Below, piece after piece: positions 8,767-61,101 of a DNA stretch of 64,000 nucleotides. The DNA lies in NCBI GenBank assembly GCA_041389885.1, contig JAWKRB010000006.1, positions 259,101 through 323,100 of the forward strand, given 5' to 3'. Within the stretch, counting starts at the first letter, position 1. Each line of letters opens with the position of its first letter. Source of the DNA: Polyangiales bacterium. GTDB lineage: Bacteria; Myxococcota_A; Polyangia; Polyangiales; Ga0077539. The notes under the pieces are model-generated. The model saw only the letters and a list, made by a program, of their open reading frames with translations. It was not told the origin of the DNA and ran no database searches. The translations under genes were made by a program, and so were the position numbers.

Positions 8767-9516
8767 CTACACCTGGAGCATCGCGCGCAGCTTGCGCGAC
8801 GACTGACGCGACACCGCGAGGCGCGCGCCGGCCTGCGTGACCAGCACCGCGCGCCCGCCGGTCATGTCGTCGATGGCGGCGACGTGCTCGAGGTTCACCA
8901 GCAGCGCCCGGTGCGCCCGAAAGAAGCGCGCGGGGTCGAGGCGCGCCTCGAGGGCGGCGAGGGTGTAGTCGGTCGTGTGGCTGCCCCGGCTGGTGTGCAC
9001 CGTGACCAGCTCGTGCTCCACCACGCAGTGCGAGATCTCGCTCACGGGGATCAGCAGCACCCGCCCGCTCACGCCCACGGGGAGCTTGTCGGCGAGGGCG
9101 CGAGGCGTGGCGGAGCGCAGGGGCGCCAAGAGCTCCTCGGCCTGCGCGCGCATGCCCCGAGACTCGGCGCGCTCGACGGCGCGCACGAGGCGGCGCGTGT
9201 CGAAGGGCTTGAGCAGGTAGTCGATGGCGCCCGCGTCGAAGGCGTCGAGGGCGTAGCGGTCGTGCGCCGTGGTGAAGATGACGTAGGGCGCGGGCGAGGG
9301 GATGCGCGCGACGAGCCGGAGCCCGTCGTCGCCCGGCATCTGCACGTCGACGAAGGCCAGGTCGGGCGCGGCGCGCTCGATGAGCGCGAGCCCCGACTCG
9401 GCGTCGTCGGCCTCGCCCACCACCGTCACGCGCCCGGCGAGGGACTCGGCGATCAGCCGATGCAACCTCGCGCGCGCCGGCGCCTCGTCGTCGATGATCA
9501 CCGCCTTCGCGCTCAC
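8767..9516 (-). CDS. LytTR-family response regulator
   Basis: GTG start at 9516 with AGGAG 7 nt upstream. Receiver domain (IIDDE...DLAFVDVQMPGDDG...K) plus C-terminal LytTR DNA-binding domain. GTGA overlap with the upstream kinase. Confidence 0.8.
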   Translation of the reverse strand: MSAKAVIIDDEAPARARLHRLIAESLAGRVTVVGEADDAESGLALIERAAPDLAFVDVQMPGDDGLRLVARIPSPAPYVIFTTAHDRYALDAFDAGAIDYLLKPFDTRRLVRAVERAESRGMRAQAEELLAPLRSATPRALADKLPVGVSGRVLLIPVSEISHCVVEHELVTVHTSRGSHTTDYTLAALEARLDPARFFRAHRALLVNLEHVAAIDDMTGGRAVLVTQAGARLAVSRQSSRKLRAMLQV

Positions 9517-10598
9517 GTCGTGCTCCTGTCTGACCCGCCGAGCGGGCCGTGAATCGTCGCGGCGGTGGCGCCGCGGTCGGTCGCGATCTCGAAGCGCCCG
9601 GCCTCGCCCCAGGCGAGGGCCACGCGGCGCCGCACCAGGTCGACGCCGAGACCGCCCTCGCGGGGGCCGCGGTAGCCGCCGGGCGAGGTCACCGTGAGCA
9701 CGAGCTCGCCGTGCGCGGCCCGCGCCGAGACCCGCACGGGCCCGCGCGCGAGCTCGCCGTGGCGCACGGCGTTCTCGAGCAGCGGCTGCAGCAGCAGCGG
9801 GGGCACGAGCACTCCGCCCAGGGACTCGTCGGCGTCGGTCTCGACGCGCAGCTCGGGGAAGCGCGCCTGCAGCAGCGCGAGGTAGTCGGCGCAGAGGGCG
9901 AGCTCCTCGTCGAGGGGGTGCATCGCGCGGCGGCGCGTGTCGAGCACCGCCCGGAGCAGCGTCGCGAGCCGGCAGATGTTCTCCTCGGCGGCGCGCGCGT
10001 CGGTGGCGCACTGGCTCGCGATGGCGTTGAGCGCGTTGAAGAGAAAGTGGGGGTCGAGGTCGGCGCGGAGCGCGTCGCGCTGCGCCGCGGCGAGGGCGGC
10101 CTCGAGGCGCTCGCGAGACCCCTCGGCGCGGTCGTGCCGCTGCTCGAGCTGGATGTCGCGGGCCAGGCCCCATCCGCCGATGAGAAAGAGCAGCCACGCG
10201 ACGAGGAGCTCGCGGAGGTGCCCGAACACATAGACCCCCGACACCCGCGCCGCGGCCGCCGCGGTGCGGTAGAGCAGCACGAGCACGGCGAATTGCCCGG
10301 TCGCCACCGAGGCCGCGAGGAGCCAGGCGCGGAGCTTGCGCCCGCGGTCGCCGTCGGCCTCCAGGGGCACCAGCGCCCGCCAGGCGAGCGGGCCGATGAG
10401 CAGGGTGTAGAGCGACGAGAACGGGCCGAAGGCCGCGCCCAGCGGGTGCCCGGTGATGCTGTACTCCATCGCGCCGAAGCCCACGCCCAGGAGGAGCGTC
10501 GCGGGCAGGCGCCAGGAGCGCAGCGCCTCGCGCACGGTGTCTTCGACGAGGGGGCCGAGCTCGGAGGAGGCCGCGGGGTCGTCGGGCTCGGTGAGCAC
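9513..10598 (-). CDS. LytS/YehU-type sensor histidine kinase (His_kinase internal region)
   Basis: Five or six TM helices followed by the HFLFNALNAI His box and a HATPase-like C-terminus (LLLQPLLENAVRHG). Translationally coupled to the LytTR gene. Confidence 0.75.
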   Translation of the reverse strand: MLTEPDDPAASSELGPLVEDTVREALRSWRLPATLLLGVGFGAMEYSITGHPLGAAFGPFSSLYTLLIGPLAWRALVPLEADGDRGRKLRAWLLAASVATGQFAVLVLLYRTAAAAARVSGVYVFGHLRELLVAWLLFLIGGWGLARDIQLEQRHDRAEGSRERLEAALAAAQRDALRADLDPHFLFNALNAIASQCATDARAAEENICRLATLLRAVLDTRRRAMHPLDEELALCADYLALLQARFPELRVETDADESLGGVLVPPLLLQPLLENAVRHGELARGPVRVSARAAHGELVLTVTSPGGYRGPREGGLGVDLVRRRVALAWGEAGRFEIATDRGATAATIHGPLGGSDRSTT

Positions 10599-10675
10599 GG
10601 GGAGACTCTAATCCCCGCCGCGGCCGCGCGACGAGCGCCCTCGGGCGTCAGCGGCTCGCGGGGCGGGGCGAGCGG

Positions 10676-11101
10676 TCAATTCAGCTGGCTGGGGCGCGGG
10701 CCCTCGTCGGGGGGGAGCAGCTCGTCGGCCACGGGGGACGACTGGTGCAGCACGAGGCGCCACGCGCCGTCTTCGCGCACGAAGGCGTTGGTCGCGACGA
10801 AGACGCCGCGCTGGTTCTCCGAGGGGAGGGTCACGTGCTCCATGCAGATCACGTAGGCGACGTCGCCCAGGAGCGAGACCCTCGGCGACTCGCAGGAGAC
10901 CTCGGGCGAGCTCGGGTTCGCGAGGATCTCCAGCCACGAGCGCATCACGGCGTCTCGACCGACGATCGGACCCCAGCCCGGATGAATGCACGCCACGGGC
11001 GCGGTGCGGGACCACAGCCCGTCCATCGCGCCAAGGTCGCGTCGCTCGAAGGCGAGGTAGAAGCCCTCGTTGGAGCGCAGCACCTCGCCCTCGTCGAGCA
11101 T
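10676..11101 (-). CDS. SnoaL-like / NTF2-fold (DUF4440-like) protein
   Basis: 141-aa ORF. FYLAFERRDLGAMDGLWS...HPGWGPIVGRDAVMRSW is typical of the NTF2-like superfamily. TGATG overlap with the upstream DctP gene. Confidence 0.55.
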   Translation of the reverse strand: MLDEGEVLRSNEGFYLAFERRDLGAMDGLWSRTAPVACIHPGWGPIVGRDAVMRSWLEILANPSSPEVSCESPRVSLLGDVAYVICMEHVTLPSENQRGVFVATNAFVREDGAWRLVLHQSSPVADELLPPDEGPRPSQLN

Positions 11102-12093
11102 CAGCGGGACCGGCCCGCGTTGCGCACCCGGGTCATCCACGCCTCGTCGGAGACGGTGCCGATGAGCCGGCGGCGGGCGCGGTCGAAGAGGCCGTTCCAC
11201 TGGGTGCGCTCGGCGGGGGTGTACTGCACGAGCTGCACCCCGCGGCGGGTGAGCGAGGTGATCGCGTTGCGGTCGTCGCGGTCGACGTTGCGCTGAATGA
11301 GCCCGTTGAACTGCTGGATGACCTCGCGCAGGAGCGTCTGCTGCTCCGCGGGGAGGCCCTGGTAGGCGCGGTTCGAGAGCACGATGCCGCCGACGGAGTA
11401 GCTGTTGGCGCCCTCGGTCATGTGGGTCATGCGCGAAGCCCACTGGAGCGCGACCGCGGCGTAGGGCGGCGCGACGAGCGCGTTGATGCGGTTCGTCTGC
11501 AGCGCGCCGAGCACCTCGGGGAGCGCCAGGGGAACCCCGGTGGCGCCCGCCTCGCGGTAGAACGCCGGGAGGATCACGTCGTCGCGCCAGAGCCAGGGGT
11601 GCGCGCCGGCGAGGTCGCTCGGCGTGCGGATCGGCATGGTCGAGAAGAGCCGGGGCATTCCGCCGACGGCCCAGGAGATCAGCGAGAAGCCGTGAGACGA
11701 GAACTGCTGCTGCACCTCGGTGTCGAGGCTCGCCCTGGCGCGCTCGACCGAGGCCTGGCTGTCGAACATGCCCGGGAGCATGAAGGCCAGCACCGGGCGG
11801 TGGATGTTCCCGAGGCCGATGCCCGTGGCGACCACGCCGTCGAGGCGCCCGGCGCGCACCTTGCGGATCATCTCCGACTCGTCGCCCTGGATGCCGCCCG
11901 CGTAGAAGCGGATCGAGAGCTGCTGGTTCGAGCGGCGCCGGAGCTCGCGGTTCGCAGACTCGAGCCCGCGGATCCAGGTGGAGCCCGCCGGGGCGAGGGT
12001 GCCGATGGAGATCGTTCGCTGCGCCTGCGCCGCGCCGCCGAGCAGCGTGAGGCCAGAGACGAGCGCGAGCAGAGCCTTCGAGGGTGAGCGCAT
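11101..12093 (-). CDS. TRAP transporter solute-binding protein, DctP family (orphan; no DctQ/M adjacent)
   Basis: Signal peptide, then a DctP-like fold signature (RFYAGGIQGDESEMIRKVRAGRLDG...). No membrane-component genes nearby. Confidence 0.6.
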   Translation of the reverse strand: MRSPSKALLALVSGLTLLGGAAQAQRTISIGTLAPAGSTWIRGLESANRELRRRSNQQLSIRFYAGGIQGDESEMIRKVRAGRLDGVVATGIGLGNIHRPVLAFMLPGMFDSQASVERARASLDTEVQQQFSSHGFSLISWAVGGMPRLFSTMPIRTPSDLAGAHPWLWRDDVILPAFYREAGATGVPLALPEVLGALQTNRINALVAPPYAAVALQWASRMTHMTEGANSYSVGGIVLSNRAYQGLPAEQQTLLREVIQQFNGLIQRNVDRDDRNAITSLTRRGVQLVQYTPAERTQWNGLFDRARRRLIGTVSDEAWMTRVRNAGRSR

Positions 12094-14464: not shown

Positions 14465-15345
14465 GCGCAGCGGACGCCGAGGTCGTAGTCGTGAAACGCG
14501 GGGTGCTGCCCCTCGCGAAAGGTCGTGCGCAGACGCTCGGTCTGGTCGTTGTTCCAGCCGCCGCCCCGGGTGACACGGGCCGAACCCTGCTCGGGGCCGA
14601 GGGGGTCTGACGCGCTGCCGGACGGATAGCTTCGCGCGTACCAGTCGGCGGTCCACTCCCAGACGTTGCCGCTCATGTCGAGCACGCCGAAGGGCGAGGC
14701 GCCCTGAGGAAAGCTCCCGACCGGGGAGGGGCCGACCCCGCGGCAGGAGTTTCCGCTCACGGTCCAGTCCGCGCGCTCGCAGTCGCTCGGCGCGTCTCCC
14801 CCCCAGGGAAAGAGCCGCCCGTCGGTGCCGCGCGCGGCGAACTCCCACTCGGCCTCGGTGGGCAGCCGTCCCCCCGCGAAGCGGCAGTAGCGCTCGCTCT
14901 GGTTCCAGTCGATGCTGGTGACGGGGACGTCTTCGGTGGGGCTCTGCGTGGCCGCGCGGGTGCACGCGCCCGCGGCGACGCAGCGGGTGTACTCGCGCGC
15001 CGAGACCTCGAGGCGGTCGATGCAGTAGTCGCTCAGCGACACCTCGTGCGCCGGTCGCTCGTCGGGCGGCGTGGACGGGTCGGCGGCGCCCATGGTGAAG
15101 GTCCCGCCGGGGATGTAGACCGCGCCGTCGGGGCACCGCGAGAGCGCCGCGGCCAGGGGGCCCTGCGCCGCCGGGGCCGCGTCGGCCGAGGGGGGCCCCG
15201 CGTCCTGGTGCGCGCGGATCGCGAGCCACCGGGGCGTGTCGTCGCGGGGCGCGCGGGGGCGCGCGGGGGGCGTCGCGCGAAAGATGCAGTGCGCGAGGGC
15301 GGCGGCTGCGAGGAGGGCGAGGGGAGCGCTGCGCGGCGCGGGCAT
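14446..15345 (-). CDS. FGE-sulfatase (SUMF1/formylglycine-generating enzyme-like) domain protein, secreted
   Basis: Signal peptide. Motifs GGTFTMG, RLPTEAEWEFAARG, GNVWEWT, RGGSW-like RGGGWNN characteristic of the FGE-sulfatase fold. Confidence 0.7.
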   Translation of the reverse strand: MPAPRSAPLALLAAAALAHCIFRATPPARPRAPRDDTPRWLAIRAHQDAGPPSADAAPAAQGPLAAALSRCPDGAVYIPGGTFTMGAADPSTPPDERPAHEVSLSDYCIDRLEVSAREYTRCVAAGACTRAATQSPTEDVPVTSIDWNQSERYCRFAGGRLPTEAEWEFAARGTDGRLFPWGGDAPSDCERADWTVSGNSCRGVGPSPVGSFPQGASPFGVLDMSGNVWEWTADWYARSYPSGSASDPLGPEQGSARVTRGGGWNNDQTERLRTTFREGQHPAFHDYDLGVRCAYAPAR

Positions 15346-15399
15346 GAGCGGCACTCTAACAGCGAGAGCGCCGCGCGCGTACACTCCCCGTCGCGGGGA

Positions 15400-18300
15400 T
15401 CAGCGGAGCGTGCCGTATCCGAGGATGCGAGACGCGTAGCGCGTGGCGTCGATCAGCCCGACGTAGTTGTGAAAGCGGGTGACCGCCTCGGCGTTGCGCT
15501 GCAGGTCGCGGTTGGCCGGCACCGGCTCGCGGGTGGTCGGGTCGAGCACCACGCGGTAGCTCCCGTCGGGGTTCTGCACCGGCCGACCGGAGAGGTCGAG
15601 CTCCACCTGGTAGGTGTCGCGCATGAGCAGGTTGGCGTGCGCGAGCATGCGCGAGGCGATGCCGCGGTCGGTCTCGACGCCGTCGACGCGGTCGGCCTCG
15701 AAGCGCCGCGCGACGTACACCACGCCGGTCTCGGGGTTGCGAAAGCGCACCCGCTCCTCCTCAGGCACGTCGACGGCCTCGGCGCCGCCCTCGGTCCAGA
15801 TGCGGAGCTTCTGGATCGTGGTGAGGTCCGAGTTGAGGGAGGAGAAGAGCATCGAGTAGACGACCGTCGGGAGCTCCTGGCGGTACCCGATGTTCGGGAA
15901 GAGAACGCGCGAGCCCGAGGGGCGCAGCGGCTCGCCGAAGGGGTCGCTGCGGGTCGGGGTGGTCCAGAGCGGCATGAGCTCGGGGGTGAGCGCGGTGAGG
16001 TTGCCCTCGCCGTCGATGCGCGGCGCCGTGGGCACGTGCATCGCCACCGCGTCCCAGTCCTCGGAGAGGATCCCGCCGAGGAGGCGGTCGTAGGCGCGCG
16101 GCATGTCGTTTCGGAAGTTCAGCTGGAACTCCCGGCCGTCGAGGAAGAGCGAGCGCGAGATGCTCGAGAAGGTCGGCCTCGTGTCGGTCAGCATGATCGC
16201 CGCGAGCGGCTTCTCGGGGTACGAGCCCGCGCGGCGCACGTACGAGTGGTAGTCCCACGAGCCGCCGATGGTGTTGTCGTACTCCTCGCCGATGAAGCGA
16301 CCGTCGCCGATGCTGATCTCAAACTGCGGCTCGTCGCCGGCGTTGTCGGGCACGTCGAAGAGAGGGCGGGTCTCCATCGGGAGCGGGCGGTTCGTCACCA
16401 GCTCGTAGTTGCCCGGCTCGGGTCGGAGCATCACGCCCGCGAAGAAGTCGAAGATCGCCGGGCCCGCCATGAGGTACGGGCGGAGCCAGTTGTCGTCGCG
16501 CGTGAGCCGCTCGTAGAGCCCCGACGAGAAGGCTTGCGAGTAGTACGCCGTGTCGCGGGCGACCGACCAGTGGTAGCCCCGCAGGCGGCGGAAGATCGTG
16601 CGCGCGAGGTAGTACGGGATGTTCATCCGGCCGAACTCGCGCTGGCCGCGGCGGAAGTACATCGACGCGTACGTCAGGTTGTACTTCTGGATCATCGACT
16701 GGGTGACCTCGTACGGGTCGGCCCCCTGGTCGAAGTAGTTGATGTGGGGGTAGCCCGTGGCGATGTCCCACCCCACGCGGTAGCCCCAGCGGAGCACCCC
16801 GCCGCCGGTGCGCGCGTCGCTGCGGGTGCGCCACATCGGGGCCACGCGGTCGGAGGTCGTGCTCGTGGGCGAGCTCTCGAAGTCGGTCATCGCCGCGTGG
16901 TCGCGGGGCGCGAACGAGCAGAGCTGGCCGTCGACGATGCGCCAGCGGTACCGAGCCTTCTCCTGCTCCGTCGCCGGGCGGCAGCGGCCGGGGTCGAACA
17001 CGCGCAGCTGCCGCGCGAGCTCGGTGTAGTGGATCGGGAGCACGCCGGTCTCGTTGAGCACCGGGTCGGTCCACTCGATCTGGTCGAGCTCAGAGAGCTG
17101 CGAGCGGAGCCTCGGCGCGAAGCGCTGCTGGTCCTCCGGCGCGAAGCCCCCGCGGGCGGTGTCGGGCTCCATGGTCTCGATGACGCGGCCGTAGAGCAGC
17201 CCCATCGCGTACACGTCGTACGAGCCGAGCCCCACGGTCTCGCCGAAGCGCTCCCACTGGTACTCCATCGTCGACGTGTTGCCGAAGTAGTTGATGCCCG
17301 CGTGGGGCGCGCTGCCCTCGGCGACGCCCTGCTCCTCGTCGCTGGGCGGGTCGATGTAGCGCGGGCCCATGCAGTTGTCGGCGTTGCGGTCCGCGTTGCG
17401 AATCGGGTTGCAGCTGTTCTGCGTGCAGCTCGGCAGGCAGGTCGAGGCGGCGGCGTTGTTGCGCGTGCGGAGCTGCCAGTACTGCGGGTTGTAGTTCATC
17501 GAGTCGTAGCTCGACGGGGGCATGTGGTAGAGCCCGAGCGAGTGGCCGATCTCGTGGAGCTGAATGCCCTTGTAGGCTTCGGTCAGCAGGTCGTCGTAGA
17601 TGCGCCGGGCGCGCTCCTCTCGGCTGAGCGTGCCGTAGCGCTGCTGAAACCACCGCGCGACGCCGCGCATGTCCTGGCTGCCCACGACCGCCGGTGCGCC
17701 GACGTCCTGGAAGCAGAAGCCGTGCCCCTCGAGGCGCTGCTGGAGCTGGTTGCGGGTGAGCTCCGCGGTGTCAGGGTCCATGCGGCGCAGGGGCGAGACC
17801 TGGTCGAGAAAGCTCGCTGACCGAGCCGCCGAGGGGTCGAAGCCGAGGTTCGAGAGCCAGTGCTCGTCGATCATGTCGGCCTCGATCGAGGTGTTCTGCA
17901 GCTGCGACGCGAGGGCGCGAAACTGCTGCGCGGAGCGGGTCGAGTCGGCCGACACGGGGCGCGCGGAGGCGAGGGCGCGGTCGTGGTTCTCCAGCGCCTG
18001 GCTCGCGTCTCGCGCCGCCGGCGCGCGAACGCCGGTGCTGGACGACAGGTTCGCGAGGTCGATGGCGCGGGCGCGCGCGCCCATCTCGGCGGGGGAGAGG
18101 GCGGGCGCGGCGGCCGCCGCGGGGTTGCGGAGGTTGCGCGCGAAGTTCTGCGCCGCGGCGCCTTCGACGTACTCGCTGACGTCGAGGTCGCCGATCATCA
18201 TCAGCACGTAGTCGCGCTGCTGCGCCGCCGCGAACTCCGCGGAGCGGCCCACGGTGAGCCCGCCGTTGGAGACCACCTCGCCGGTCAGGGGGTCGTAGCC

Positions 18301-30258: not shown

Positions 30259-32405
30259 TCAGTCCTCGGCGTCGGGGACGGTCTCGCCCCGCTCGCGGAG
30301 CCACTTGCGCATCTCGTCCTTGTCGATGGCCTTCTCGAGCGCGGCGGTGCCCTCGATGAGTCCGTCGTCCGCGAGCTTTCGCAGCGCGTCGTCCATGGCG
30401 ATCATCCCGGCCTTCTTGCCCAGCTTGATGAGGCCGCCGATCTGGTGGGTCTTCCCGTCTCGGAGCAGGGAGGACATGGCGGGGTTCGCGAACAAGATCT
30501 CGACCGCCGCGCACCGCCCGCCCCCCTTCTTGCGCAGCAGCTGCTGCGCGACGACGGCCTTCGTCACCGACGCGAGCGTGCCCCGCACGCCGGCCTGCTT
30601 GTCGGCGGGAAAGACGTTGATGATCCGGTCGAGGGTCTTGGCCGCGGAGTTCGTGTGCAGGGTGCCGAAGACGAGCACGCCCGTCTCCGCCGCCGAGAGC
30701 GCCATCGAGATGGTCTCGAGGTCGCGCATCTCCCCCACGAGGATCGCGTCGGGGTCCTCGCGCACCGCGGCGCGGAGCGCGGTGGAGAAAGCTCCGCGAG
30801 TGCGGCCCGACTCGCGCTGGGTCATCAGCGAGCTTGTTGGGGTGCACAGAGTCGATGGGGTCCTCGATGGTCACGAAGTGCACTGCGCCGCGTGGCGTTC
30901 ATCTCGTTGATGATCGCCGAGAGCGTGGTGCTCTTGCCCGAGCCCGTCGGCCCGGTGACCAGCACCAGGCCCGAGCGCATCGACACGATCTGCTTGATCG
31001 CCTCGGGTAGCCCGAGCTGCGCCACCGTCATCAGCTTCGTCGGGATGATCCGAAACACCGCGCCCATGCCCCGCTCCTGCTTGAACAGGTTGACGCGAAA
31101 GCGCGAGAGCCCTGGGACTTCGTAGGCGAAGTCCATGTCGCCAGACGCGAGGTACTCGGCCCAAAGGTGCGGCGGCGCGATCGGCTGCACCAGGCCGCGA
31201 AAGTCGTCGTTGTCGAGGGTGCGGTACCGAATGGGCTCCATGCGACCGCTGAGGCGAAAGATCGGCGGCCGCCCCACGGAGAGGTGCAGGTCGCTCGCGC
31301 CGCGGTCGTTCATGAGCTTCAAGAAGCGGTCGATGCGGTTCTGACCAGGCGCGCCGGGCGCGATGCTCGCCGCGGGCTTCGCCGACTTCGCCGTCGGCGC
31401 GTCGCCCAGCAGGGCGCTGAGCGCCGTAGGGTTCGCCGCGAGGGCCTCGAGGGTCTGCAGCACCTCGGGCGCCAGACGGGGGACCGCGGGCGCGCGTGGC
31501 GAGTCGGCTCCGAACTCCTGGCCGGGCGCCGCGGGCGGGGCCTGCGGAGCGAGGGGCGGGGCCTGCGGAGCCAGGGGCGGGGCCTGCGGTGGAGCCGCGC
31601 GCGGCGGCGTCGGTCGGGGCTCCGCCGCGGGGAGTTCGGGCTCCGTCGGACGCGCGCCCATCGCCACGGGCGGCGGGCGGTCGAAGGCGACCTCGATCTC
31701 CTCGACGGCGCGCGTGGCCTCGGCCACGAAGGTCGGGCTGGGGGGAGGCTTTGAGTCGGGGAGGACGACCCACTCCTGCACGAGGGACATCGGATCGGTC
31801 CACAGCGGTCGAATCGGCCGCTCGGGCGCGTGCGCCTCGATGATCGGAGCCACCTCGACCTCGACCGGCGCCGCGGAGGGGCGGCGCTCCGGCGGGCGTG
31901 AGTCCTTCTCTTCGATGAGGTTCAGCTCCAGGGGCTCGACGTCGTCTGGGATCTGCACCCACGACGTGCGAGTGAAGGTCGGCTCGATCGGGAGCTCCTC
32001 GTGCGCGATGGACGGCGGCGGCACCTGCACCCTCGCGATGACGCTCTCGTCCTTGATGCGCCCCTGGGGCGTCGCGGCGTCGGGAAAGAACACGGGCTCA
32101 GACGGCCGCGGCGGGCGCGCGCTCCCCGGCGCCCCGCGCTCCTCGCGGACACGGGGGCGGACGAACGGCTCCTCCGCCGTCGGGCGCCGCTCGACGCGCT
32201 CCTCGACGACCGGCCGACGTCGGAGTCGATCCTCCGCGCCGGAGGGGATCGAGACACGCTCCTCGACGATGGCCCTCCGAGGCGCCCGGTCGGGCGGCGA
32301 GGGGCGCGCGTCGAACGACTCCGGCGACGGCGCCCCGTCGTCTTCGCGCCTGGGGTCGAGGCCGCGGCTCGGCCTCGCGCCGAGGGGTGGCTTGCTCCCG
32401 CTCAC
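30259..32405 (-). pseudogene. PilT-family (type IV pilus retraction-like) ATPase with ~350-aa Pro/Glu/Arg-rich N-terminal extension; two apparent frameshifts inside the ATPase core (pseudogene or sequencing errors)
   Basis: Frame A gives the N-terminal extension plus ASDLHL...GPTGSGKSTTLSAIINEMNATRR, then garbage. Frame B gives HFVTIEDPIDSVHPNK. Frame C gives LMTQRES...REDPDAILVGEMRDLETI...GTLHTNSAAKTLDRIINVFP to the stop at 30259. The GTG at 32405 overlaps the upstream TGA (GTGA). Confidence 0.5.
31530..31600. repeat. Three imperfect ~21-bp direct repeats (gggcggggcctgcggagc-) encoding (PQAPPLA)n in the PilT-like N-terminal extension
   Basis: Read directly: cgggcggggcctgcggagcgag / gggcggggcctgcggagccag / gggcggggcctgcggtggagc. 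Confidence 0.5.
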
Positions 32406-34849
32406 GACGCCGCCCCCGTGAGCCGGGCCTCGAACTGCTCCTTGTTCTCCGCTCGCATGTAGGCCGTCTCCGCCGTGATGAGCCCGGCGTCCAGCAGGTC
32501 TGCCAGGCTCTGATCGAGCGTCTGCATCCCCTGCGCGCGAGAGATCTGCATCAGGCTCGGGAGCTGGTAGGTCTTGCAGTCGCGAATGAGGGTGCTGACG
32601 TTCATCGAGCCCTTGAGCACCTCGAAGACGGCCACCCGCCCCTTGCCGTCGGCGCGGGGGACGAGCGACTGCGAGACCACGAACTTCAAGCTCTCTGAGA
32701 GCCCCATGCGCACCTGCTGCTGCTCGTCGGGGGGAAAGCTCTCGATGAGCCGGTCGATCGTCGCGACGCAATTGGTGGTGTGCATCGTCGCGATCACGAG
32801 GTGCCCCGTCTCGGCCGCCATGAGCGACATGCGGATCGTCTCGATGTCGCGCATCTCGCCCACCATGATCACGTCGGGGTCCTCGCGGAGCGCCGCGCGC
32901 AGCGCGCGGCTGAAGCTCTCGGTGTTGCGCCCGACCTCGCGCTGATTGACCAGCGACTGCTTCGAGGGGTGCACGAACTCGATGGGGTCCTCGAGCGCGA
33001 TGATGTGGTCGCTCTTGCTCTCGTTCACGAGGTTGATGATCGCCGCGAGGGTCGTGCTCTTGCCGCCGCCCGCGGGGCCCGTCACCAGGATGATCCCCTG
33101 GTGGTAGTCGAGGAGCTGGGTGAGCTGGCCGGGGATGCGGAGGTCGGCGAAGGTCGGCGGGAGGTTCGGGATGCTGCGAAACGACGCGCAGGTGCCCAGC
33201 CGCTGCACGAAGGCGTTCGCGCGGTACCGCCCCACGCCGGGGATGGCGTGGCAGAAGTCGATCTCGCCGTGCTCCTCGAAGGACGCGCGGCGGGTCGGGT
33301 CGAGGATCTCGAGCACCCACTCCCGGGTCGTCTTGGCGTCGAGGGGCGGGTGCTCGACGCGCTCGAGCTGACCGTTGAGCCGAAACCACGGAGGCTCGCC
33401 CACGGTGAGGTGCACGTCCGACGCCCCGCGCTCCCTCGCGTCGGCGAGGAGACGGTCGAGGGGGCGCGAGAGGTCGCCTGAGACCACTGTCGACGTCGCC
33501 GCGTCGAGGCCGGCGCCGGTGTCTCCCTTCGCCCGCAGAATCTCCGCCGCCCGCATGCGCACGTCCTGGCTCGGGTCGCTCTCGACCACCTTGCGGAACA
33601 GCTTCGAGAGCCGCGGGTCGGTCGAGCGCGCGCAGGCCTGGAGCACTTCCATGCGCACCTCCTGCCGGTCGTCGTTGAGCAGCCCCACCAGCGCCCGGAG
33701 CGCCTGCTCCCCGCCGATCACCCCCAGCGCGTCGATGGCCGCCCAGCGCGTGTCCTTGTCGTCGAGCGCCTTCACCAGGTGCGGCGTGACCCGCTCGTCC
33801 TTGAGCTTCGCCAGCGTCTCGCAGGCGGTGATGCGGAGCCACCAGTCCTCGTCGTCGAGGAGCTTCACCACGGGGCCGACGAGCCTCGGGTCCTCGAAGT
33901 GCTCGCAGAGCACCAGCGCCTGCATCCGAATGTCGTCGTCGGGGTGCCCGAGCATCTCCACCGCGGGGCGCAGCACCTCGTCGCCGAAGGTGCGCAGGGT
34001 GTTCAAGATCCGGGTGCGGAGCCAGCCCAGCAGCGTGCGGCAGTGGTGGAGGATCTCCGCGATGACCTCCGAGGGAGAGCCCGTGCTCAGCAGCAGCTCC
34101 ACCGCGGTCCTCCGGATCGAGTCGTCGCCCTCGGAGAGCATCTTGAGCAGCCTCGGGCGAACGCGCGCCGGCATCGCCGCCGCCGCCGCCCGCACGGAGG
34201 TCAGTGCGTGTGAGCGCACCGTCGCGTTGTCGTTCGCGAAGCGGTCGAGCATCACGTCGAGCACCTCTTCAGACGGCGGCAATTGCGCGAGGAGCTCGAT
34301 GACACGCTCGCGCAGCCGGTCCTCGGGGTCGGCTACCAGGCTCATGAGCAGCGGCGCCAGCTGCTCGGGGCTCCGGTCCGCCGCGAGGCGCTGCAGCGCC
34401 GCGACGCGAATCGGCCCGGGGGCCTCGCGAATCGCGCGCTCGGCGAAGGTCGCGCGCGCGTCGCCGCCGAGCTCCAGCGCCACCTCCCAGCCCAGGCGCT
34501 TGCGCATCGCCGAGGCGTCCTTCAGCAGCACCTCGAGGCCCGGACCGACCACCTCGGGGCGAACGCGACCGAGCACCCGCACCGAGAAGGCGCGGGCGGC
34601 GGCGTGCTGCCCCGGCATCTCCCCGAGCAGCGCGGTCACCGCCTTCGCGTCGGCGCGCGACGCGAAGACGGTCGCCGCCGCGTTGCGCACCGTGTTGTCG
34701 CTCATCGAGAGGAGCGGGATCACGTCCGCGGCCCGCACCCCGGCGTCTTCGCGCAGCGAGTCCAGGAGCTGAGCCTTCTCGTCGTCGCTCTTCCACTGCT
34801 GCTGGACGAGCCGTTGCAGCGGCGAGCGTGAGGTGCCGAACAGGGCCAT
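32402..34849 (-). CDS. HEAT-repeat (PBS-lyase-like) domain fused to a complete PilT-type ATPase
   Basis: N-terminal ~450 aa of HEAT-like repeats (…VRMEVLQACARSTDPRL…, DDDIRMQALVLCEHF…). C-terminal ASDVHLTVGEPPWFRLNG...GPAGGGKSTTLAAIINLVN...HIIALEDPIEFVHPSKQSLVNQREVG...REDPDVIMVGEMRDIETI...ATMHTTN. Start set to ATG 34849 to avoid overlapping xerC. Confidence 0.65.
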   Translation of the reverse strand: MALFGTSRSPLQRLVQQQWKSDDEKAQLLDSLREDAGVRAADVIPLLSMSDNTVRNAAATVFASRADAKAVTALLGEMPGQHAAARAFSVRVLGRVRPEVVGPGLEVLLKDASAMRKRLGWEVALELGGDARATFAERAIREAPGPIRVAALQRLAADRSPEQLAPLLMSLVADPEDRLRERVIELLAQLPPSEEVLDVMLDRFANDNATVRSHALTSVRAAAAAMPARVRPRLLKMLSEGDDSIRRTAVELLLSTGSPSEVIAEILHHCRTLLGWLRTRILNTLRTFGDEVLRPAVEMLGHPDDDIRMQALVLCEHFEDPRLVGPVVKLLDDEDWWLRITACETLAKLKDERVTPHLVKALDDKDTRWAAIDALGVIGGEQALRALVGLLNDDRQEVRMEVLQACARSTDPRLSKLFRKVVESDPSQDVRMRAAEILRAKGDTGAGLDAATSTVVSGDLSRPLDRLLADARERGASDVHLTVGEPPWFRLNGQLERVEHPPLDAKTTREWVLEILDPTRRASFEEHGEIDFCHAIPGVGRYRANAFVQRLGTCASFRSIPNLPPTFADLRIPGQLTQLLDYHQGIILVTGPAGGGKSTTLAAIINLVNESKSDHIIALEDPIEFVHPSKQSLVNQREVGRNTESFSRALRAALREDPDVIMVGEMRDIETIRMSLMAAETGHLVIATMHTTNCVATIDRLIESFPPDEQQQVRMGLSESLKFVVSQSLVPRADGKGRVAVFEVLKGSMNVSTLIRDCKTYQLPSLMQISRAQGMQTLDQSLADLLDAGLITAETAYMRAENKEQFEARLTGAAS

Positions 34850-34937: not shown

Positions 34938-35918
34938 ATGAGCACGGGGATGGCCGAGGCGCTGAGCGATTTCGAAACCTACCTCGCTCACGAACAGCGC
35001 GCGTCGCCGCGCACCGTCGAGCACTACCTCCGCGACCTGCGCACGCTGGAGACCTTTCTGCAGCGAGGCCGCGACGTCGCGCCGACCCTCGGCGACGTGA
35101 CCCTGCTCGCGCTGCGCGCCTGGCTCGGCGAGCGCGCGAAGGGGCGCGAGGGATCTACGATCGCGCGAAACGTCGCGAGCGTTCGCGCGCTCTTTCGTTG
35201 GGCGCGCAAGACAGGACGGGCCGAGCAAGACCCCTCGGCCACGCTGCGCTCGCCCAAGCTGCGACGCCCCCTCCCAGATCTGCTGTCGGTCCCCGACGCA
35301 GGGCGCCTGATGGAGACGCCGGGCACCCGCAGGATCGCCCGACCGGAGGGGGTGGTGCTCCGCGCCACGAGGGCGCGGATCGCGTTGCGCGACAAGGCGA
35401 TGCTCGAAGTCGTCTACGGGAGCGGGCTCCGTATCTCCGAGGCGGTGGGGCTCTCGCTGAACGACATCTCGCTCTCGCCCCGCGCCGCGCGGGTGCTGGG
35501 CAAGGGCTCGCAGGAGCGGATCGTTCCTCTCGGTCGCTCCTGCGTCGAGGCCCTCGAGGCCTGGCTCGCGGTGCGCCACGAGATGGTCGACCCCCGTACT
35601 GGCGCCCAGGACCCCGACGCGCTCTTTCTCACCCGCGCGGGGAGGCGAATCACGGTGCGGCAGGTTCAGCTCTCCTTCGCGGCCTACGGAGAGCTCGCCA
35701 CGGGCACCCCCGGGGTGCACCCGCACCAGCTCCGGCACGCCTGCGCCACGCACCTCCTCGACGCCGGGGCCGACCTGCGAGCGATTCAAGAGCTCTTAGG
35801 TCACTCGTCGCTCTCGACCACCCAGCGGTACACCCACGTCTCCATGGACCAGGTCATGAAGGTCTACGACGGCGCCCACCCCCTCGCGCGCTCTGCCGCC
35901 GAGGGCGACGATCAGTAG
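34938..35918 (+). CDS. xerC: Tyrosine recombinase XerC/XerD family
   Basis: N-terminal core-binding domain (FETYLAHEQRASPRTVEHYLRDL). Catalytic R...HxxR...Y (LRHACATHLL, TQRYTHV). Alternative start at 34950. Confidence 0.7.
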   Translation: MSTGMAEALSDFETYLAHEQRASPRTVEHYLRDLRTLETFLQRGRDVAPTLGDVTLLALRAWLGERAKGREGSTIARNVASVRALFRWARKTGRAEQDPSATLRSPKLRRPLPDLLSVPDAGRLMETPGTRRIARPEGVVLRATRARIALRDKAMLEVVYGSGLRISEAVGLSLNDISLSPRAARVLGKGSQERIVPLGRSCVEALEAWLAVRHEMVDPRTGAQDPDALFLTRAGRRITVRQVQLSFAAYGELATGTPGVHPHQLRHACATHLLDAGADLRAIQELLGHSSLSTTQRYTHVSMDQVMKVYDGAHPLARSAAEGDDQ

Positions 35919-44127: not shown

Positions 44128-45558
44128 TCAGGGTGACAGACGGAGCGGCCGAAAGAACGGCCAGACCAGCTGCGCCCAGTTTGGCGGGACGGCGTGACCC
44201 TCGCCGTCGAAGAGCGTCGTCTGCACGGGCATGCCGAGCGCGAGCATGCGCGCCTGCAGGGTGCACGTGTAGTAGACCGAGACGAGGGGGTCGTTGGTGC
44301 CGTGGGTGAGCAGTCCCGGCACGCGGCGCCCAGAGGTCGCGAGGGGGATCGGGAGCTCGGGGCCCGCGCAGTTGCACCACCCGCTGCGGGTGGCGAGGGT
44401 CGAGCAGGTGGTCCCGGCGCCACGAAAGCGGCAGGAGGTGGTGCGCGCGCAGGTCACGAGTCCTCCGGAGTTCTCCGAGAAGGCCGCGACGCGATCGCGC
44501 AGCAGCGTCGCGACGAACACCGCGAAGAACGCGCCGTTGGAGTGGCCCATGACGTACACGCGCGACGGGTCGACGTTGTACACGCGCTGCGCCTCGACCA
44601 GGATCGCGCGCACCAGCAGCACGTCCTCATTCGAATCCGGGTTCGGGTTGCGCTGGGTCTCCCAGTAGGTCTCTTCGGTGGCGTGGTCGAAGTCGCCCAC
44701 GCCGAGCCAGCGCGACGACGGCGCGGCGACGATCACGCCCTCGGCGCTGGCCAGGGCGGCGGCGTTCGACTCGGTCATGATCTGCGAGCCGTCTCCGTTG
44801 GTCCCATGAAAGAGCAGCAGGAGCGGCGGCGACGAGCCTGCGCTGGTGGGCACCGACAGTCGCACCGAGCGCGGGTTGCCGTTGATCCGCAGCGTCGCGG
44901 TGAAGTTCCCCGTGCGCGCGGCGAAGGTGCCCCCGTACGCAACCGGATCGTTCCCGGTGGCCCCGCTGTCCATGACGGTGACCACATCGGGGCGGTCGAC
45001 GGTGACCACATCGGGGCGGTCGACGGTGACCACATCGGGGCGGTCGACGGTGACGACATCGGGGCGGTCGACGGTGACCACATCGGGGCGGTCGATGGTG
45101 ACGACATCGGGGCGGTCGATGGTGACCACGTCGGGGCGGTCGACGGTGACCACGTCAGGAGCCGGCGGGACGACCACATCGGGGCGATCGAGGGTGACCA
45201 CGTCGGGAGGCGGCGGAACGACCACGTCGGGGCGGTCCATCCAGGGCGCGCTCGCGTCTTCTCCGCGAGTCACGTCGGGGAGGATGATGTCCCAACGCGC
45301 GGCGGAATCGCTGGCGTCGCTCGCGTCGCCTGCGTCTCCCGCGTCTCCCGCGTCTCCCACGTCTCCCGCGTCGCCTGCGTCTCCCGCGTCGCCTGCGTCT
45401 CCCGCGTCGAGGGGCTGGCTCGCGTCCGAGCTGGGCGCGCTCAGGTCTCCGTCAGGGGCCCCCATCGAGACCCCGTCTGCGCAGCCCGAAACGCCCAAAA
45501 GGAGACCAAGCATAAGACCGATTCGGTGCACGCCGGCAGTGGACGACGCCGTGCGCAC
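44128..45558 (-). CDS. Lipoprotein with (DAG)n and (VTVDRPDV)n tandem repeats and a C-terminal alpha/beta-hydrolase (esterase/PHB-depolymerase-like) domain
   Basis: Lipobox LLGVSGC. The repeats sit in the N-terminal half. GHSNG nucleophile elbow (VMGHSNGAFF). Confidence 0.6.
   Translation of the reverse strand: MRTASSTAGVHRIGLMLGLLLGVSGCADGVSMGAPDGDLSAPSSDASQPLDAGDAGDAGDAGDAGDVGDAGDAGDAGDASDASDSAARWDIILPDVTRGEDASAPWMDRPDVVVPPPPDVVTLDRPDVVVPPAPDVVTVDRPDVVTIDRPDVVTIDRPDVVTVDRPDVVTVDRPDVVTVDRPDVVTVDRPDVVTVMDSGATGNDPVAYGGTFAARTGNFTATLRINGNPRSVRLSVPTSAGSSPPLLLLFHGTNGDGSQIMTESNAAALASAEGVIVAAPSSRWLGVGDFDHATEETYWETQRNPNPDSNEDVLLVRAILVEAQRVYNVDPSRVYVMGHSNGAFFAVFVATLLRDRVAAFSENSGGLVTCARTTSCRFRGAGTTCSTLATRSGWCNCAGPELPIPLATSGRRVPGLLTHGTNDPLVSVYYTCTLQARMLALGMPVQTTLFDGEGHAVPPNWAQLVWPFFRPLRLSP
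44976..45235. repeat. 24-bp tandem repeat, ~10.8 copies (ggtgaccacatcggggcggtcgac), in-frame coding VTVDRPDV
   Basis: Visible directly in the sequence. Copies differ at one to three positions (cac/gac, atc/gtc). Confidence 0.85.
45316..45410. repeat. 9-bp tandem repeat (gcgtctccc/gcgtcgcct), ~10 copies, coding (DAG)n
   Basis: Visible directly in the sequence. Confidence 0.8.
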
Positions 45559-58826: not shown

Positions 58827-61101
58827 TCAGGCGTCGCCGCGCCAGGGGCGGTCGGACTCGTACTCCTCCTCGAGGTCGTCGGCCAGGGCCGCGCGCACCT
58901 GCGCGGGCAGGTCGTCGAGCGCGATGCGGGTGCCCTTCGCGCGCCGCACCGCGTGCTCGATCGCGGCGTCGAGCTCGTCGAGGTTGCCCGGCCAGCGGTA
59001 GCTCCGGAGCGCGAGCGCGGCCTCAGGGCCGACCCCCAGCGCCGCGCGGCCGTGCACCCGGCACGCGCGGTCGATCGACAGCAGCGTGAGCGACTCGAGG
59101 TCCTCGATCCGCTCGCGGAGCGGGGGCACCCGCACCGTGCGCTCGGAGAGCATGTCGAGCAGCGCGCGAGGGAGGTCGAAGCGCTCGGGTCGGTCGCGCA
59201 TCGTCACGACGACGCGCACGTCGACCGCGTAGCCGTGCTCGGCGCCCAGGCGCCGCGACGTGCCCGTGCGAAGCGCGTCGACGAGGGCGACCTGGGCGTC
59301 GTGTCCCAGCGCCGGGAGGTCTTCGAGGACCAGCGTTCCGCCCGCGGCGTGCTCCAGCCAGCCCGCGCGCTCGGGGCTCTCGCGGGCGTCGCCCACCAGC
59401 GCCGCGAGCAGCCCGTCGAGGCGCGCGCCCCCGGCGTCGAGGATCACGAACGGAGACGCCGCGCCGGGGCCCTGGTCGTGCAGCACCTTCGCGATCGCCG
59501 CCGCGCCCGCTCCTCCCTCCGACACGAGCGCCACAGGACCCCGCATCGAGAGCGCGATCGCCTTGTCTCGCAGCGACCTCGACGTCGCCGCGTACGCCGT
59601 CCAGCGCTCGTCGCGCTCGCCCAGCGCCCGCATGCGCCTGGCGCCCTCGTGGAGCGCGACGAGCCGCTGGGTCTCTCGCGACGCCTCGACCGCGAGGCGG
59701 TCTGCGCCCTCGGCGCGGGTCACGGCCTCGTCGGCGCGGGCGCGCGCGGTCGAGCGCCGCCAGCATCGAGACCACGCCCTCGACGCGCAGCGCGAGGGCC
59801 TCGACCCGGAGCTGCTCCTCGTAGCTCGGCACGGCGGTGCGCGCGCCGCGAGGGATGAGGATCGCCCCCACCAGCTCCTCCCCCTCGCGCAGCGGCACCG
59901 CGCCGAGCGCGCCGAGCTCGTCGAGCGCGGAGACCAGCGGGCGCAGCTCCGCGCGGCGCACCTCGTAGGGGCGGAGCGTGTCGGTGAACACCGCGCCGGG
60001 GCGCGCGCGCATCCACGACAGCACCGGCCGCGCGGTGTCGAGCCCCAGGGTCGCGCGCCGGGCCCCGCCGCTCACGTCGATGTGCAGCGCCTCGCGCTTG
60101 TTCAAGAGCCAGATCGCCGCGGGGGCGCGGAGGTTGCGGGCCGCCGCGCGGAGCGGGTCGAGCACGGCCGCCGCGAGGTCGATCTCGTCGCGGACCGCGG
60201 GCAACAGGCGCTCGACCTCGTCGCACGCGTCCAGCAGCCGGCCGTCGTCAGGGCGGAGCCGCCTCTCGAGCACCGGGATGAGCGCGAAGGTGGTCGCCAG
60301 GGCCACGCAGACCGCGAGCAGCGGCACCGAGGGGAGCGCGAGCGCCAGGGCGCCCCCCGCGAAGAGACCCGCCAGCGCGGCCGCGCTGCGACGCGCGAGG
60401 AGGGCCGAGCGGTCGAGGCCGAGGGCGCCGGTGCCGGCGGTGAGGCCGATGACCTGCGCCGAGGCGCCTGCCGCGAGCACGAGGGGGGAGACGTCGCGGC
60501 CCCACATCGCCCGCACGAGCATCGCCGCCGCGAGGATCGCCGCGCCGACGCCCGGCGCGATGAGCCGCGCCCGCTCCATGGGCATGAGGGGTCGGCGCAC
60601 GGCGTGGAGGTGGTAGAGCGCGCCGAACGCGCTCGCGCCGAACGCGCTGTACGCGCCGAGGGACCAGTCTCGCGTTGCGGCTGGCCACATGGCCAGGGTC
60701 GCGAAGCCGCCCACCAGCAGTCCCGGCAGCGCCGCGCGGCGAAGCGTGTCGACGCGCAGGGGGAGCGCCGCGGCCATCGCCGTCGCCACCCCGAGCACCT
60801 CGCCGAACAGGATCGCCTGCACCACCCGGAGCGCGTGCGTCGGGGGAACGGTGCCGGCCACGGTGGTCGCGACCAGCGAGGCCGCGAGGGCGCCGGTGAT
60901 CAGCGCGGCCTCCGCGGCGACGGGCGCGATGGCCGCGGCGGCGCGTCGGGGCGCGAGGGCGCACACGCCCGCGAGCGCGAGCGTGGCGGCGCCCTCGAGG
61001 GTCACGGGCCGACCCGAGAGCGACCACGCGGAGACGGCGACCCCCGCGCTCATCAGCGCGGCGAGCTCGCTCCAGGGCGCTCTCTCTCGTAGGGGTGACA
61101 T
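58827..61101 (-). CDS. Membrane (~8 TM) - GAF-like - degenerate sigma-54-activator-type AAA+ domain protein; frameshift in a (CG)n tract near 59738-59752; no DNA-binding domain
   Basis: ATG at 61101 with GAGGAG RBS. Frame A runs to ...VVSMLAALDRAR. Frame B runs from ...ADEAVTRAEGADRL... to the stop at 58827. AAA+ motifs: Walker B GGTLVLEDL, RFDLPRAL, PPLRERIEDL, YRWPGNLDELD. Walker A is SEGGAGAAA with no Lys, and there is no GAFTGA. Confidence 0.5.

Follow-up and report, generated by a model that had tools for sequence, protein, structure and literature searches.

Two adjacent PilT-family genes at the locus

The window analysed here is the whole 64,000-nt stretch of a Polyangiales contig; its GC content is 72.5%, and it also holds a resolved tandem array of about 11 copies of a 24-nt unit, which is too weak a clue to identify the sequencing platform. 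The source is a metagenome-assembled genome, and the three products relevant here were deposited as MEZ4390105-07 ('MAG: ... Polyangiales bacterium') on a 356,633-bp contig. The minus strand carries two pilT-like genes in tandem next to a divergent recombinase gene (Table 1). The upstream member encodes a fusion protein that scores 427.9 bits against TIGR01420 and aligns in a single block with its orthologue in contig L001 (86.7% identity over 815 aa), and its TGA stop overlaps the GTG start of the downstream gene at 32405 (GTGA). The downstream gene is disrupted: it has an N-terminal Pro/Arg/Glu-rich extension of ~350 aa, for which a Pfam search gave no match, followed by a PilT ATPase domain of ~345 aa. 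Its third-codon-position GC (GC3) phase is unbroken from 30890 to ~32350, and orthologues P0002-P0005 (598-671 aa) cover 86-100% of it. The adjacent pair is syntenic in four Polyangiales contigs. We read the disrupted locus as an ordinary PilT-family ATPase gene, conserved in myxobacteria, and as the downstream member of that pair.

The M. xanthus genes MXAN_6705 and MXAN_6706 also form an adjacent pair, for which high conservation across the Myxococcales is reported, and the N-terminus of MXAN_6705 is longer and predicted to be intrinsically disordered (PMC13584747). Our locus resembles that arrangement, a likeness drawn from the published description: both have two pilT-like genes side by side, and the long N-terminus of MXAN_6705 matches, by description, the low-complexity long N-terminus of our downstream gene. 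In contrast, our upstream partner has a HEAT-repeat N-terminal domain of ~490 aa that is absent from the description of MXAN_6706 in the same report (PMC13584747). Deletion of the three extra M. xanthus paralogues gave varying degrees of S-motility defect only, and the strongest phenotypes were those of the MXAN_0415 and MXAN_6706 deletions, not that of MXAN_6705 (PMC13584747).

Table 1. Features of the pilT-paralogue locus (window coordinates).
Feature	Position	Strand	Remarks
Disrupted PilT/PilU-family ATPase paralogue, whole gene	30259..32405	-	715 aa after frame joining
Frame A ORF, MEZ4390106.1, 526 aa	30825..32405	-	NCBI annotation
Frame B segment HFVTIEDPIDSVHPNK with Asp box	30833..30880	-	Outside both annotated CDS
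Frame C ORF, MEZ4390105.1, 188 aa	30259..30825	-	NCBI annotation
Walker A GPTGSGKST, intact	30927..30953	-	Frame A; aligned to 3JVU
Walker B DAILVGEMRD	30750-30721	-	Frame C; aligned to 3JVU
Lesion 1, +1 nt	30882..30885	-	Window CGGCGCAGTGCAC vs CGGCG-GATGCAC in five orthologues
Lesion 2, GAGTTC to GACTCT, three window-unique changes	30848..30851	-	GAGTTC in 6/6 orthologues
Lesion 3, 2-nt deletion between bases	30832..30833	-	AAGCTCTCGCTG to AAGCTCGCTG, CTCTC contraction
Lesion 4, 1-nt deletion between bases	30810..30811	-	GAG[A/G]TCGG to GAGTCGG
Lesion 5, one extra T	30788..30790	-	AGCTTCTCC to AGCTTTCTCC, back to frame C
Seven out-of-frame codons SGRTRGA replacing IGPHS(K/R)S	30790..30810	-	Flanked by lesions 4 and 5
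Intact upstream paralogue, PilT ATPase fused to HEAT repeats, 815 aa, MEZ4390107.1	32402..34849	-	Pfam HEAT_2 + T2SSE
Divergent XerC/D-type tyrosine recombinase gene	34938..35894	+	Synteny kept in L001, L158, L159

One PilT-like protein in three reading frames

Three-frame translation of 30700-31000 shows that the minus-strand reading frame switches twice, near 30883 and near 30832: frame A reads ...SAIINEMNATRRSALRDHRGPHRLCAPQQAR and ends at a stop at 30827-30825, frame B reads HFVTIEDPIDSVHPNK (30880-30833), and frame C reads (S)LMTQRESGRTRGAFSTALRAAVREDPDAILVGEMRD and continues to its stop at 30259. This pattern is not a product of chance, because the GC3 signal (>0.9) jumps from phase 0 to 2 to 1 exactly at the frame switches; a 7-state frame segmentation places the switches at 30883/30884 and 30829/30830. 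The claim of the first-pass annotation, that a PilT ATPase core is spread over three frames by closely spaced indels, is thus borne out. The frame A ORF is true coding sequence to about 30885 and then runs through 19 wrong-frame codons to its TGA; it is 100% identical to database protein P0001 ('MAG: ATPase, T2SS/T4P/T4SS family [Polyangiales bacterium]'). The frame C ORF, whose ATG overlaps the frame A stop (TGATG), holds the Walker B motif, the C-terminal domain and a His box, TGVLVFGTLHT, in which a His-to-Val change is common to the intact orthologues.

When the frames were joined by dropping one extra base and adding one X placeholder, with the scrambled residues kept, the protein scored 408.8 bits against TIGR01420 pilT_fam (cutoff 319.1) over model positions 2-343 of 343, a full-length match that holds only after joining, and it was colinear and ungapped with P. 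aeruginosa PilT (3JVU, 332.9 bits). This is the check that the first-pass annotation had asked for, an alignment of the indel-corrected translation along all of PilT. The Walker A, Walker B and His box motifs are common to the disrupted gene and PilT/PilU proteins; canonical PilT, by contrast, lacks the ~350-aa Pro/Arg-rich extension found here and in the intact orthologues, and the deposited gene occupies three frames, with the frame A stop and four indels relative to six orthologues, and its Asp box lies in frame B as EDPIDS where all orthologues have EDPIEF. The P. aeruginosa PilT segment AIRNLIRE is replaced by AMSSLLRD, which marks the protein as a paralogue rather than canonical PilT. 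The further proposal that the three frames together rebuild the conserved PilT segment holds for the joined profile match, and fails at 'ESGRTRGAF', which is a translation of seven out-of-frame codons.

Five lesions in 98 nucleotides

Lesions were called from a seven-way DNA alignment of the window and six single-frame orthologues. The 98-nt patch at 30788-30885 contains four window-only indels and one 3-nt substitution cluster, more than the two indels previously counted, and the gene is not 'otherwise intact' as had been stated, since the Asp-box EF has become DS and the QRE-IGPHSxSF motif has lost its frame over seven codons. Lesion 1 shifts frame A to frame B, so that R-M-H becomes R-S-(G)-H (the sixth orthologue differs from the other five here only at the Arg/Lys codon); lesion 2 turns EDPIEF into EDPIDS; and lesion 3 shifts frame B to frame C with loss of the Leu codon of NK-L-SLMTQRE. 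Lesions 4 and 5 cancel in frame; with the A put back and one T taken out, the sequence reads MNATRRMHFVTIEDPIEFVHPNKLSLMTQREIGPHSRSFSTALR. The orthologue-like states across the patch are CGC ATG CAC..., GAGTTC, CTCTCG, GAGATCGG and AGCTTCTCC. The patch falls where the ATPase core is most conserved, from the Asp box to the QRE-IGPHSxSF motif, and the ~50 nt just before it (Walker A to INEMNATRR) are identical to L001 and L159. It is less GC-rich than the 72.5% window average, which weakens the earlier suggestion that a high-GC region was to blame.

How local is the damage? Beyond the listed lesions, comparison with the six orthologues showed no further indel in the patch region, and comparison with four orthologues showed none in the other ~990 nt aligned for the ATPase domain; given the first indel, the chance that three more fall within ~96 of 1088 nt is about 7e-4. 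The dN/dS values are 0.06-0.12 upstream and 0.08-0.17 downstream of the patch, at dS of about 0.35-0.67, and the gene is thus under strong purifying selection on both sides, with no decay alongside the lesions.

Several local causes were considered. The patch contains short inverted repeats (CGCGAGT/ACTCGCG at 30795-30816), and the base inserted at lesion 1 creates an 8-nt palindrome, AGTGCACT; a quasi-palindrome or template-switch origin is not supported, however, as the DNA folding energy is -27.4 kcal/mol for the observed and the repaired patch alike. The TCC AAG to TCG CGG change that aids one stem belongs to the normal K/R variation of this position, where the sequence in L160 is TCA CGG. 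Gene conversion from the adjacent paralogue is likewise not supported, the segments being ~78-79% identical and the paralogue having a normal EDPIEF, and a GAGATC left unchanged at another place in the gene speaks against a GAGNTC-like methylation motif as the cause. Phase variation was rejected too: no lesion site has a tract of at least 5 units, the repeats there being CTCTC (2.5 units) and TT/TTT and the other sites being free of repeats.

Orthologues, sister assemblies and database searches

At both shift sites all six orthologues, which come from independent assemblies, keep a single frame, and they carry E(I/V)GPHS(K/R)SF where the window reads ESGRTRGAF, so the orthologue comparison called for by the first-pass annotation places the lesions in the window only. 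None of the orthologues is split at the position of the patch. The same gene is also broken in two relatives. In the sister MAG GCA_046351575.1 (L158) it has lost single nucleotides at three places within ~80 nt, and neighbouring genes are fragmented; clustered indel artefacts are thus present in public MAGs from this clade. In another population (L159/P0246) the gene is split in the Pro-rich linker, and there the JGI and Logan assemblies agree.

Searches for an independent assembly of the same species were negative within their scope. Exact-protein look-ups of an 847-aa ORF and of P0001 returned no encoding contig; among GTDB species representatives and JGI metagenome contigs nothing exceeded 55% identity over the full N-terminal query, higher identities being limited to its conserved C-terminal ~50 residues; and the closest ATPase domain, P0147, has a 90%-identity cluster of 12 members, none of them a same-species sequence. 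No second assembly carrying the patch was found, P0001 and P0143 being singleton clusters among ~15 billion proteins.

Frame integrity in the rest of the window

A second conserved gene, encoding a sigma-54 regulator, has lost its frame through a 2-nt deletion at 59746, within a CG-rich run; it is single-frame in an orthologous contig (92% DNA and 93% protein identity) and in 16 more distant orthologues of 754-767 aa. All other same-strand frame switches in the window coincide with normal gene boundaries, where a stop lies within ~40 nt, and no further coding indel was found in about 13.5 kb compared with close orthologous contigs. Among the indel contexts are two dinucleotide-repeat contractions (CTCTC and the CG-rich run at 59746) and a homopolymer lengthened from TT to TTT; the lesion 1 base, the A deletion of lesion 4 and the GAGTTC to GACTCT change lie outside homopolymers.

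Origin of the lesions

Could the gene be functional as deposited? The first-pass annotation had offered programmed frameshifting as one explanation, which here would require the ribosome to shift by +1 twice in succession, or transcription to slip, to restore full-length PilT. Its sole favourable point is that both frame changes are +1 and ~50 nt apart, and that direction is all that the locus has in common with prfB/RF2-type frameshifting, from which it differs in having no in-frame stop, hungry codon, upstream Shine-Dalgarno-like stimulator or conserved site. The unshifted state of all six orthologues means that no shift site is conserved; by inspection, site 1 (CGG CGC AGT GCA) and site 2 (AAC AAG CTC GCT) have no stop, hungry-codon or slippery configuration, +1 P-site re-pairing is possible at neither, and there is no A or T run on which transcription could slip. 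The doubly shifted product would still have DS for EF, be one residue short and keep seven scrambled residues in an invariant motif, and the compensating -1/+1 pair of lesions 4 and 5 shows that the changes lie in the DNA rather than in its decoding. We therefore give recoding virtually no credence. It is also highly improbable that the 526-aa and 188-aa ORFs are translationally coupled through the TGATG at 30827-30823 and reassemble into an active, split motor. The one-base overlap of the frame A stop with the frame C ATG, and the annotation of both ORFs as CDS by NCBI, would suit such an arrangement, but that ATG is merely the conserved Met of SLMTQRE, the Asp box is in frame B and hence in neither product, the 188-aa product opens with a scrambled motif, and no orthologue is split at the same place. 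With programmed frameshifting gone, the other two explanations originally offered, recent pseudogenisation and an assembly or sequencing error, both stay live.

A genuine and very recent pseudogene, in which one complex event introduced all of the lesions and the gene is now dead in the population, is a substantial possibility, though we would not bet on it. Such an event might have been a template switch between short inverted repeats, or a tract left by error-prone repair or translesion synthesis, and the sigma-54 regulator at 59746 would then be a second young pseudogene. The lesions are, after all, present in the deposited sequence while the window is otherwise of high quality, and indels outside homopolymers together with a 3-nt substitution cluster are unusual in polished assemblies. 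Short inverted repeats, including the palindrome made by the inserted base, are at hand in the patch, though repeats of this size are common in GC-rich DNA and the unchanged folding energy means that the lesions bring no overall gain in hairpin formation. The linker split in L159/P0246 may mean that the paralogue is dispensable, and the limited motility defects of the M. xanthus paralogue deletions (PMC13584747) count on the same side. Against this, a gene that carries five lesions in one 98-nt stretch and no others, with dN/dS around 0.1 on both sides, demands a rare single multi-lesion event, and the patch has been seen in no second assembly.

We think that the patch is probably a local consensus error of sequencing or assembly rather than the organism's DNA. 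In favour are the confinement of all lesions to 98 nt, the strong constraint without decay on either side, the MAG origin of the contig, the second frameshift at 59746 and the clustered deletions of L158. The organism itself would then have an undamaged gene for a PilT paralogue of ~716 aa, and the error could have arisen in an unpolished or mis-polished stretch, in a patch of low read coverage, or in a mixed-haplotype pile-up where co-occurring relatives are nearly identical; cross-mapping of reads from relatives would be expected to be worst next to the most conserved segment of ~50 nt. Dinucleotide contractions and homopolymer extensions are taken to be typical contexts of consensus errors. 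In published work, indel frameshifts split genes in long-read or hybrid metagenome assemblies, and residual errors concentrate where read alignment is unreliable (10.1101/2021.08.23.457338; PMC8812927). Conserved genes there are split into adjacent ORFs in different frames, as they are here and in L158; our window differs from such assemblies in its low error density elsewhere and in that several of its lesions are not homopolymer-length errors. The lesions outside homopolymers are not of the classic long-read or Illumina error types and so count against a consensus error, as does the cleanness of the rest of the window, which shows that the assembly is accurate overall and makes a seven-base error patch an outlier.

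Significance

The main value of the finding is as a quality flag: MEZ4390106.1 and MEZ4390105.1 are fragments of one PilT-paralogue gene, and they should not be treated as distinct proteins or cited in support of recoding or of an ATPase that is truncated or split. It is rather unlikely, in our judgement, that the patch is real and that a single multi-lesion event has just inactivated a widely conserved MXAN_6705-type paralogue, in which case the split in L159/P0246 could indicate recurrent loss of this auxiliary ATPase in nature. If so, the locus would illustrate cleanly how a clustered multi-lesion mutation can kill an auxiliary pilus motor, and would be of modest interest for mutational mechanisms and for the dispensability of PilT paralogues.

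The disrupted gene and its neighbourhood

Third-position GC and start-codon positions place the start of the disrupted gene at a GTG that overlaps the upstream stop codon, TGA, in the string GTGA, and the protein obtained by joining its frames is 715 aa long. Residues ~358-698 match the NCBIfam PilT/PilU family TIGR01420 (model positions 2-343 of 343), scoring 408.8 bits where the cutoff is 319.1; Pfam T2SSE likewise matches, and an alignment of the ATPase domain with P. aeruginosa PilT (PDB 3JVU) is gap-free. The N-terminal ~350 residues are Pro/Arg/Glu-rich, and a domain search with them gave no match. Identity among orthologues is 61% in the N-terminal alignment block versus 91% in the C-terminal part of the ATPase domain, and the linker is their most variable part. 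Here the Pro-rich linker carries three tandem 21-nt units.

The upstream gene, translationally coupled through the GTGA overlap, is intact and joins a HEAT-repeat part of ~490 aa to a full PilT ATPase domain; it is 87% identical to its counterpart on the related contig L001. Beyond it lies a divergent gene for an XerC/D-type recombinase, and L001, L158 and L159, three other Polyangiales-type contigs, keep the order recombinase, HEAT-PilT, long-N-terminus PilT. The pair resembles the adjacent M. xanthus paralogues MXAN_6705/6706, reported to be highly conserved in Myxococcales, of which MXAN_6705 has a long, disordered N-terminus (PMC13584747).

Five lesions in 98 nucleotides

The first-pass annotation had described a PilT-like ATPase core split over three frames by two frameshifts within ~50 bp, and three-frame translation of 30700-31000 recovers all three pieces on the minus strand (table below). 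At the window's 72.5% GC, the coding frame stands out clearly in third-position GC, which is at least 0.87 in phase 0 between ~32350 and 30890, peaks in phase 2 at roughly 30800-30860, and reaches 0.9 or more in phase 1 between ~30760 and 30260. A 7-state frame segmentation puts the switches at 30883/30884 and 30829/30830. The three-frame pattern is real and far beyond chance.

Coordinates of the genes, frames, lesions and repeats in the window
Feature	Position	Strand	Detail
HEAT-PilT gene	34849..32402	-	815 aa
Disrupted PilT-family gene	32405..30259	-	GTG start
Linker repeats	~31520-31600	-	3 units of 21 nt encoding APPLAPQ
Frame A	to 30827-30825	-	ends ...GPTGSGKSTTLSAIINEMNATRR, then 19 wrong codons to TGA
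Frame B	30880-30833	-	HFVTIEDPIDSVHPNK
Frame C	to 30259	-	(S)LMTQRESGRTRGAFSTALRAAVREDPDAILVGEMRD, on to stop
Lesion 1	30882-30885	-	+1 base; window CGGCGCAGTGCAC, orthologues CGGCG-GATGCAC
Lesion 2	30848-30851	-	GAGTTC to GACTCT; Asp box EF to DS
Lesion 3	between 30833 and 30832	-	2-nt deletion, CTCTCG to CTCG; NK-L-SLMTQRE minus its Leu
Lesion 4	between 30811 and 30810	-	1-nt deletion, GAG(A/G)TCGG to GAGTCGG
Lesion 5	30788-30790	-	one extra T, AGCTTCTCC to AGCTTTCTCC
24-nt tandem array	44926-45255		~11 copies of GACGGTGACCACATCGGGGCGGTC
Sigma-54 regulator gene	58827-61101	-	junction ~59746
Deletion in regulator gene	59746		2 nt; window GACCG--CGCGCGCC, L155 GACCGCTCCCGCGCC

The lesions were listed by aligning the window with the DNA of six orthologues from independent assemblies (intact orthologous proteins are P0002, 661 aa; P0003, 657; P0004, 598; P0005, 671; and P0236, 659), and all five are unique to the window relative to 6/6 orthologues. 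Lesions 4 and 5 cancel, so the seven codons between them are out of frame; they read SGRTRGA where orthologues have IGPHS(K/R)S, and the earlier reading of this stretch as conserved does not hold. With all five lesions reversed the sequence becomes MNATRRMHFVTIEDPIEFVHPNKLSLMTQREIGPHSRSFSTALR, which matches the orthologue consensus exactly. An extra 3-nt difference, TCC AAG versus TCG CGG (K to R), is ordinary variation, because the related contig L160 has TCA CGG.

In 1088 aligned ATPase-domain columns, all window-specific gaps fall within 30788-30885; given one indel, the chance of three more inside ~96 of 1088 nt is ~7e-4. Outside this patch dN/dS is 0.06-0.12 on the upstream side and 0.08-0.17 on the downstream side (dS ~0.35-0.67). 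The part downstream of the frameshifts is thus as constrained as the part upstream, and any inactivation is therefore extremely recent, or not real. That five lesions crowd into 98 nt, in a gene otherwise undamaged and under strong constraint, points to a single local event.

Other frame breaks in the window and in related assemblies

A scan of the entire window for frame switches on the same strand, with no intergenic gap between, gave 21. For 18 of these a stop lies within ~40 nt, and they are normal gene boundaries; that leaves the two PilT junctions and a second frameshift near 59733. This last break leaves two ORFs of a gene for a membrane-sensor and sigma-54-interaction AAA regulator: one of 692 aa, genuinely coding no further than ~59740, and one of 298 aa (MEZ4390133.1). 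The fused 758-aa protein has 16 orthologues of 754-767 aa, covering 96-100%, and an intact 758-aa relative (P0146, contig L155) is 93% identical; across the 5.3 kb that align at 92% nucleotide identity, the 2-nt deletion, in a CG-rich run, is the sole coding indel. No other frame break occurs in the ~8 kb shared in synteny with L001, and from this and the scan the assembly is generally accurate. Of roughly 55 genes in the window, two conserved ones are broken. The 24-nt tandem array lies within 44137-45258, assigned minus-strand coding by the segmentation, and so would encode an 8-residue protein repeat.

In the sister MAG GCA_046351575.1 (L158; JAXLYH010000012.1, locus coordinates 8955-11053 and 14496-17311) the orthologous PilT gene has lost one nucleotide at each of three places within ~80 nt, close to the 5' end of its ATPase-coding part; the result is a scrambled stretch, ATCTSRWDARRSSPQRAHGADPLPH, in its protein P0242. 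No gene is called for the N-terminal part of this PilT, and an esterase-family gene of ~950 aa next to it is in pieces of 152, 73 and 203 aa. This looks like a clear case of error-rich assembly, so such artefacts occur in this clade's public MAGs. In another population (L159; JGI 3300056626, Ga0558126_13911, 9145-11125) a frameshift in the Pro-rich (C/G-rich) linker splits the orthologue into 272-aa and 374-aa ORFs; the same truncated 272-aa product is also called on a Logan contig (P0246), and the otherwise matching P0236 is intact. Either a real polymorphism or a systematic error could account for this break.

Origin of the lesions

Programmed frameshifting, offered by the first-pass annotation beside error and pseudogenization, is excluded, and recoding of any kind is barely conceivable: orthologues are single-frame at both junctions, the junctions (CGG CGC AGT GCA and AAC AAG CTC GCT) show no slippery or stop-adjacent configuration and no A/T run, and the doubly shifted product still lacks invariant residues. 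Phase variation was rejected, as no lesion site has a long repeat tract. The two annotated ORFs overlap at TGATG, as two halves of a split functional ATPase might, but this ATG codes for the conserved Met in SLMTQRE, and neither product would contain the Asp box; the overlap is incidental and a split enzyme highly improbable.

The other two explanations are still live. We modestly favour a local technical artefact in the MAG contig consensus as more probable than real mutation, because it would fit the contig's derivation from a MAG, the further 2-nt repeat contraction elsewhere in the window and the behaviour of the sister MAG, although the window is clean overall and several lesions are non-homopolymer. 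An uncorrected or mis-corrected consensus stretch would produce such a patch, which begins just past the ~50 nt that vary least between related genomes; cross-mapping of relatives' reads would occur there. A real, recent pseudogene made by a single complex mutation, such as an error-prone repair patch or template switch, is possible, if somewhat doubtful: short inverted repeats occur in the patch, but the sequence folds no better as observed than as repaired (-27.4 kcal/mol for both), which therefore gives this reading no positive support.

We found no independent same-species assembly in GTDB representatives, JGI metagenomes or the 12-member cluster of P0147, the protein with the nearest ATPase domain (95% identical); in the first two, nothing was nearer than 55% over the full N-terminal query. 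The 356,633-bp contig carries, as NCBI proteins, the fragments MEZ4390106.1 (526 aa) and MEZ4390105.1 (188 aa) and the upstream MEZ4390107.1, all under the label 'MAG: ... [Polyangiales bacterium]'; in a set of ~15 billion proteins each is a singleton. All of this fits within known biology, and the two deposited fragment records are pieces of one PilT-paralogue gene.
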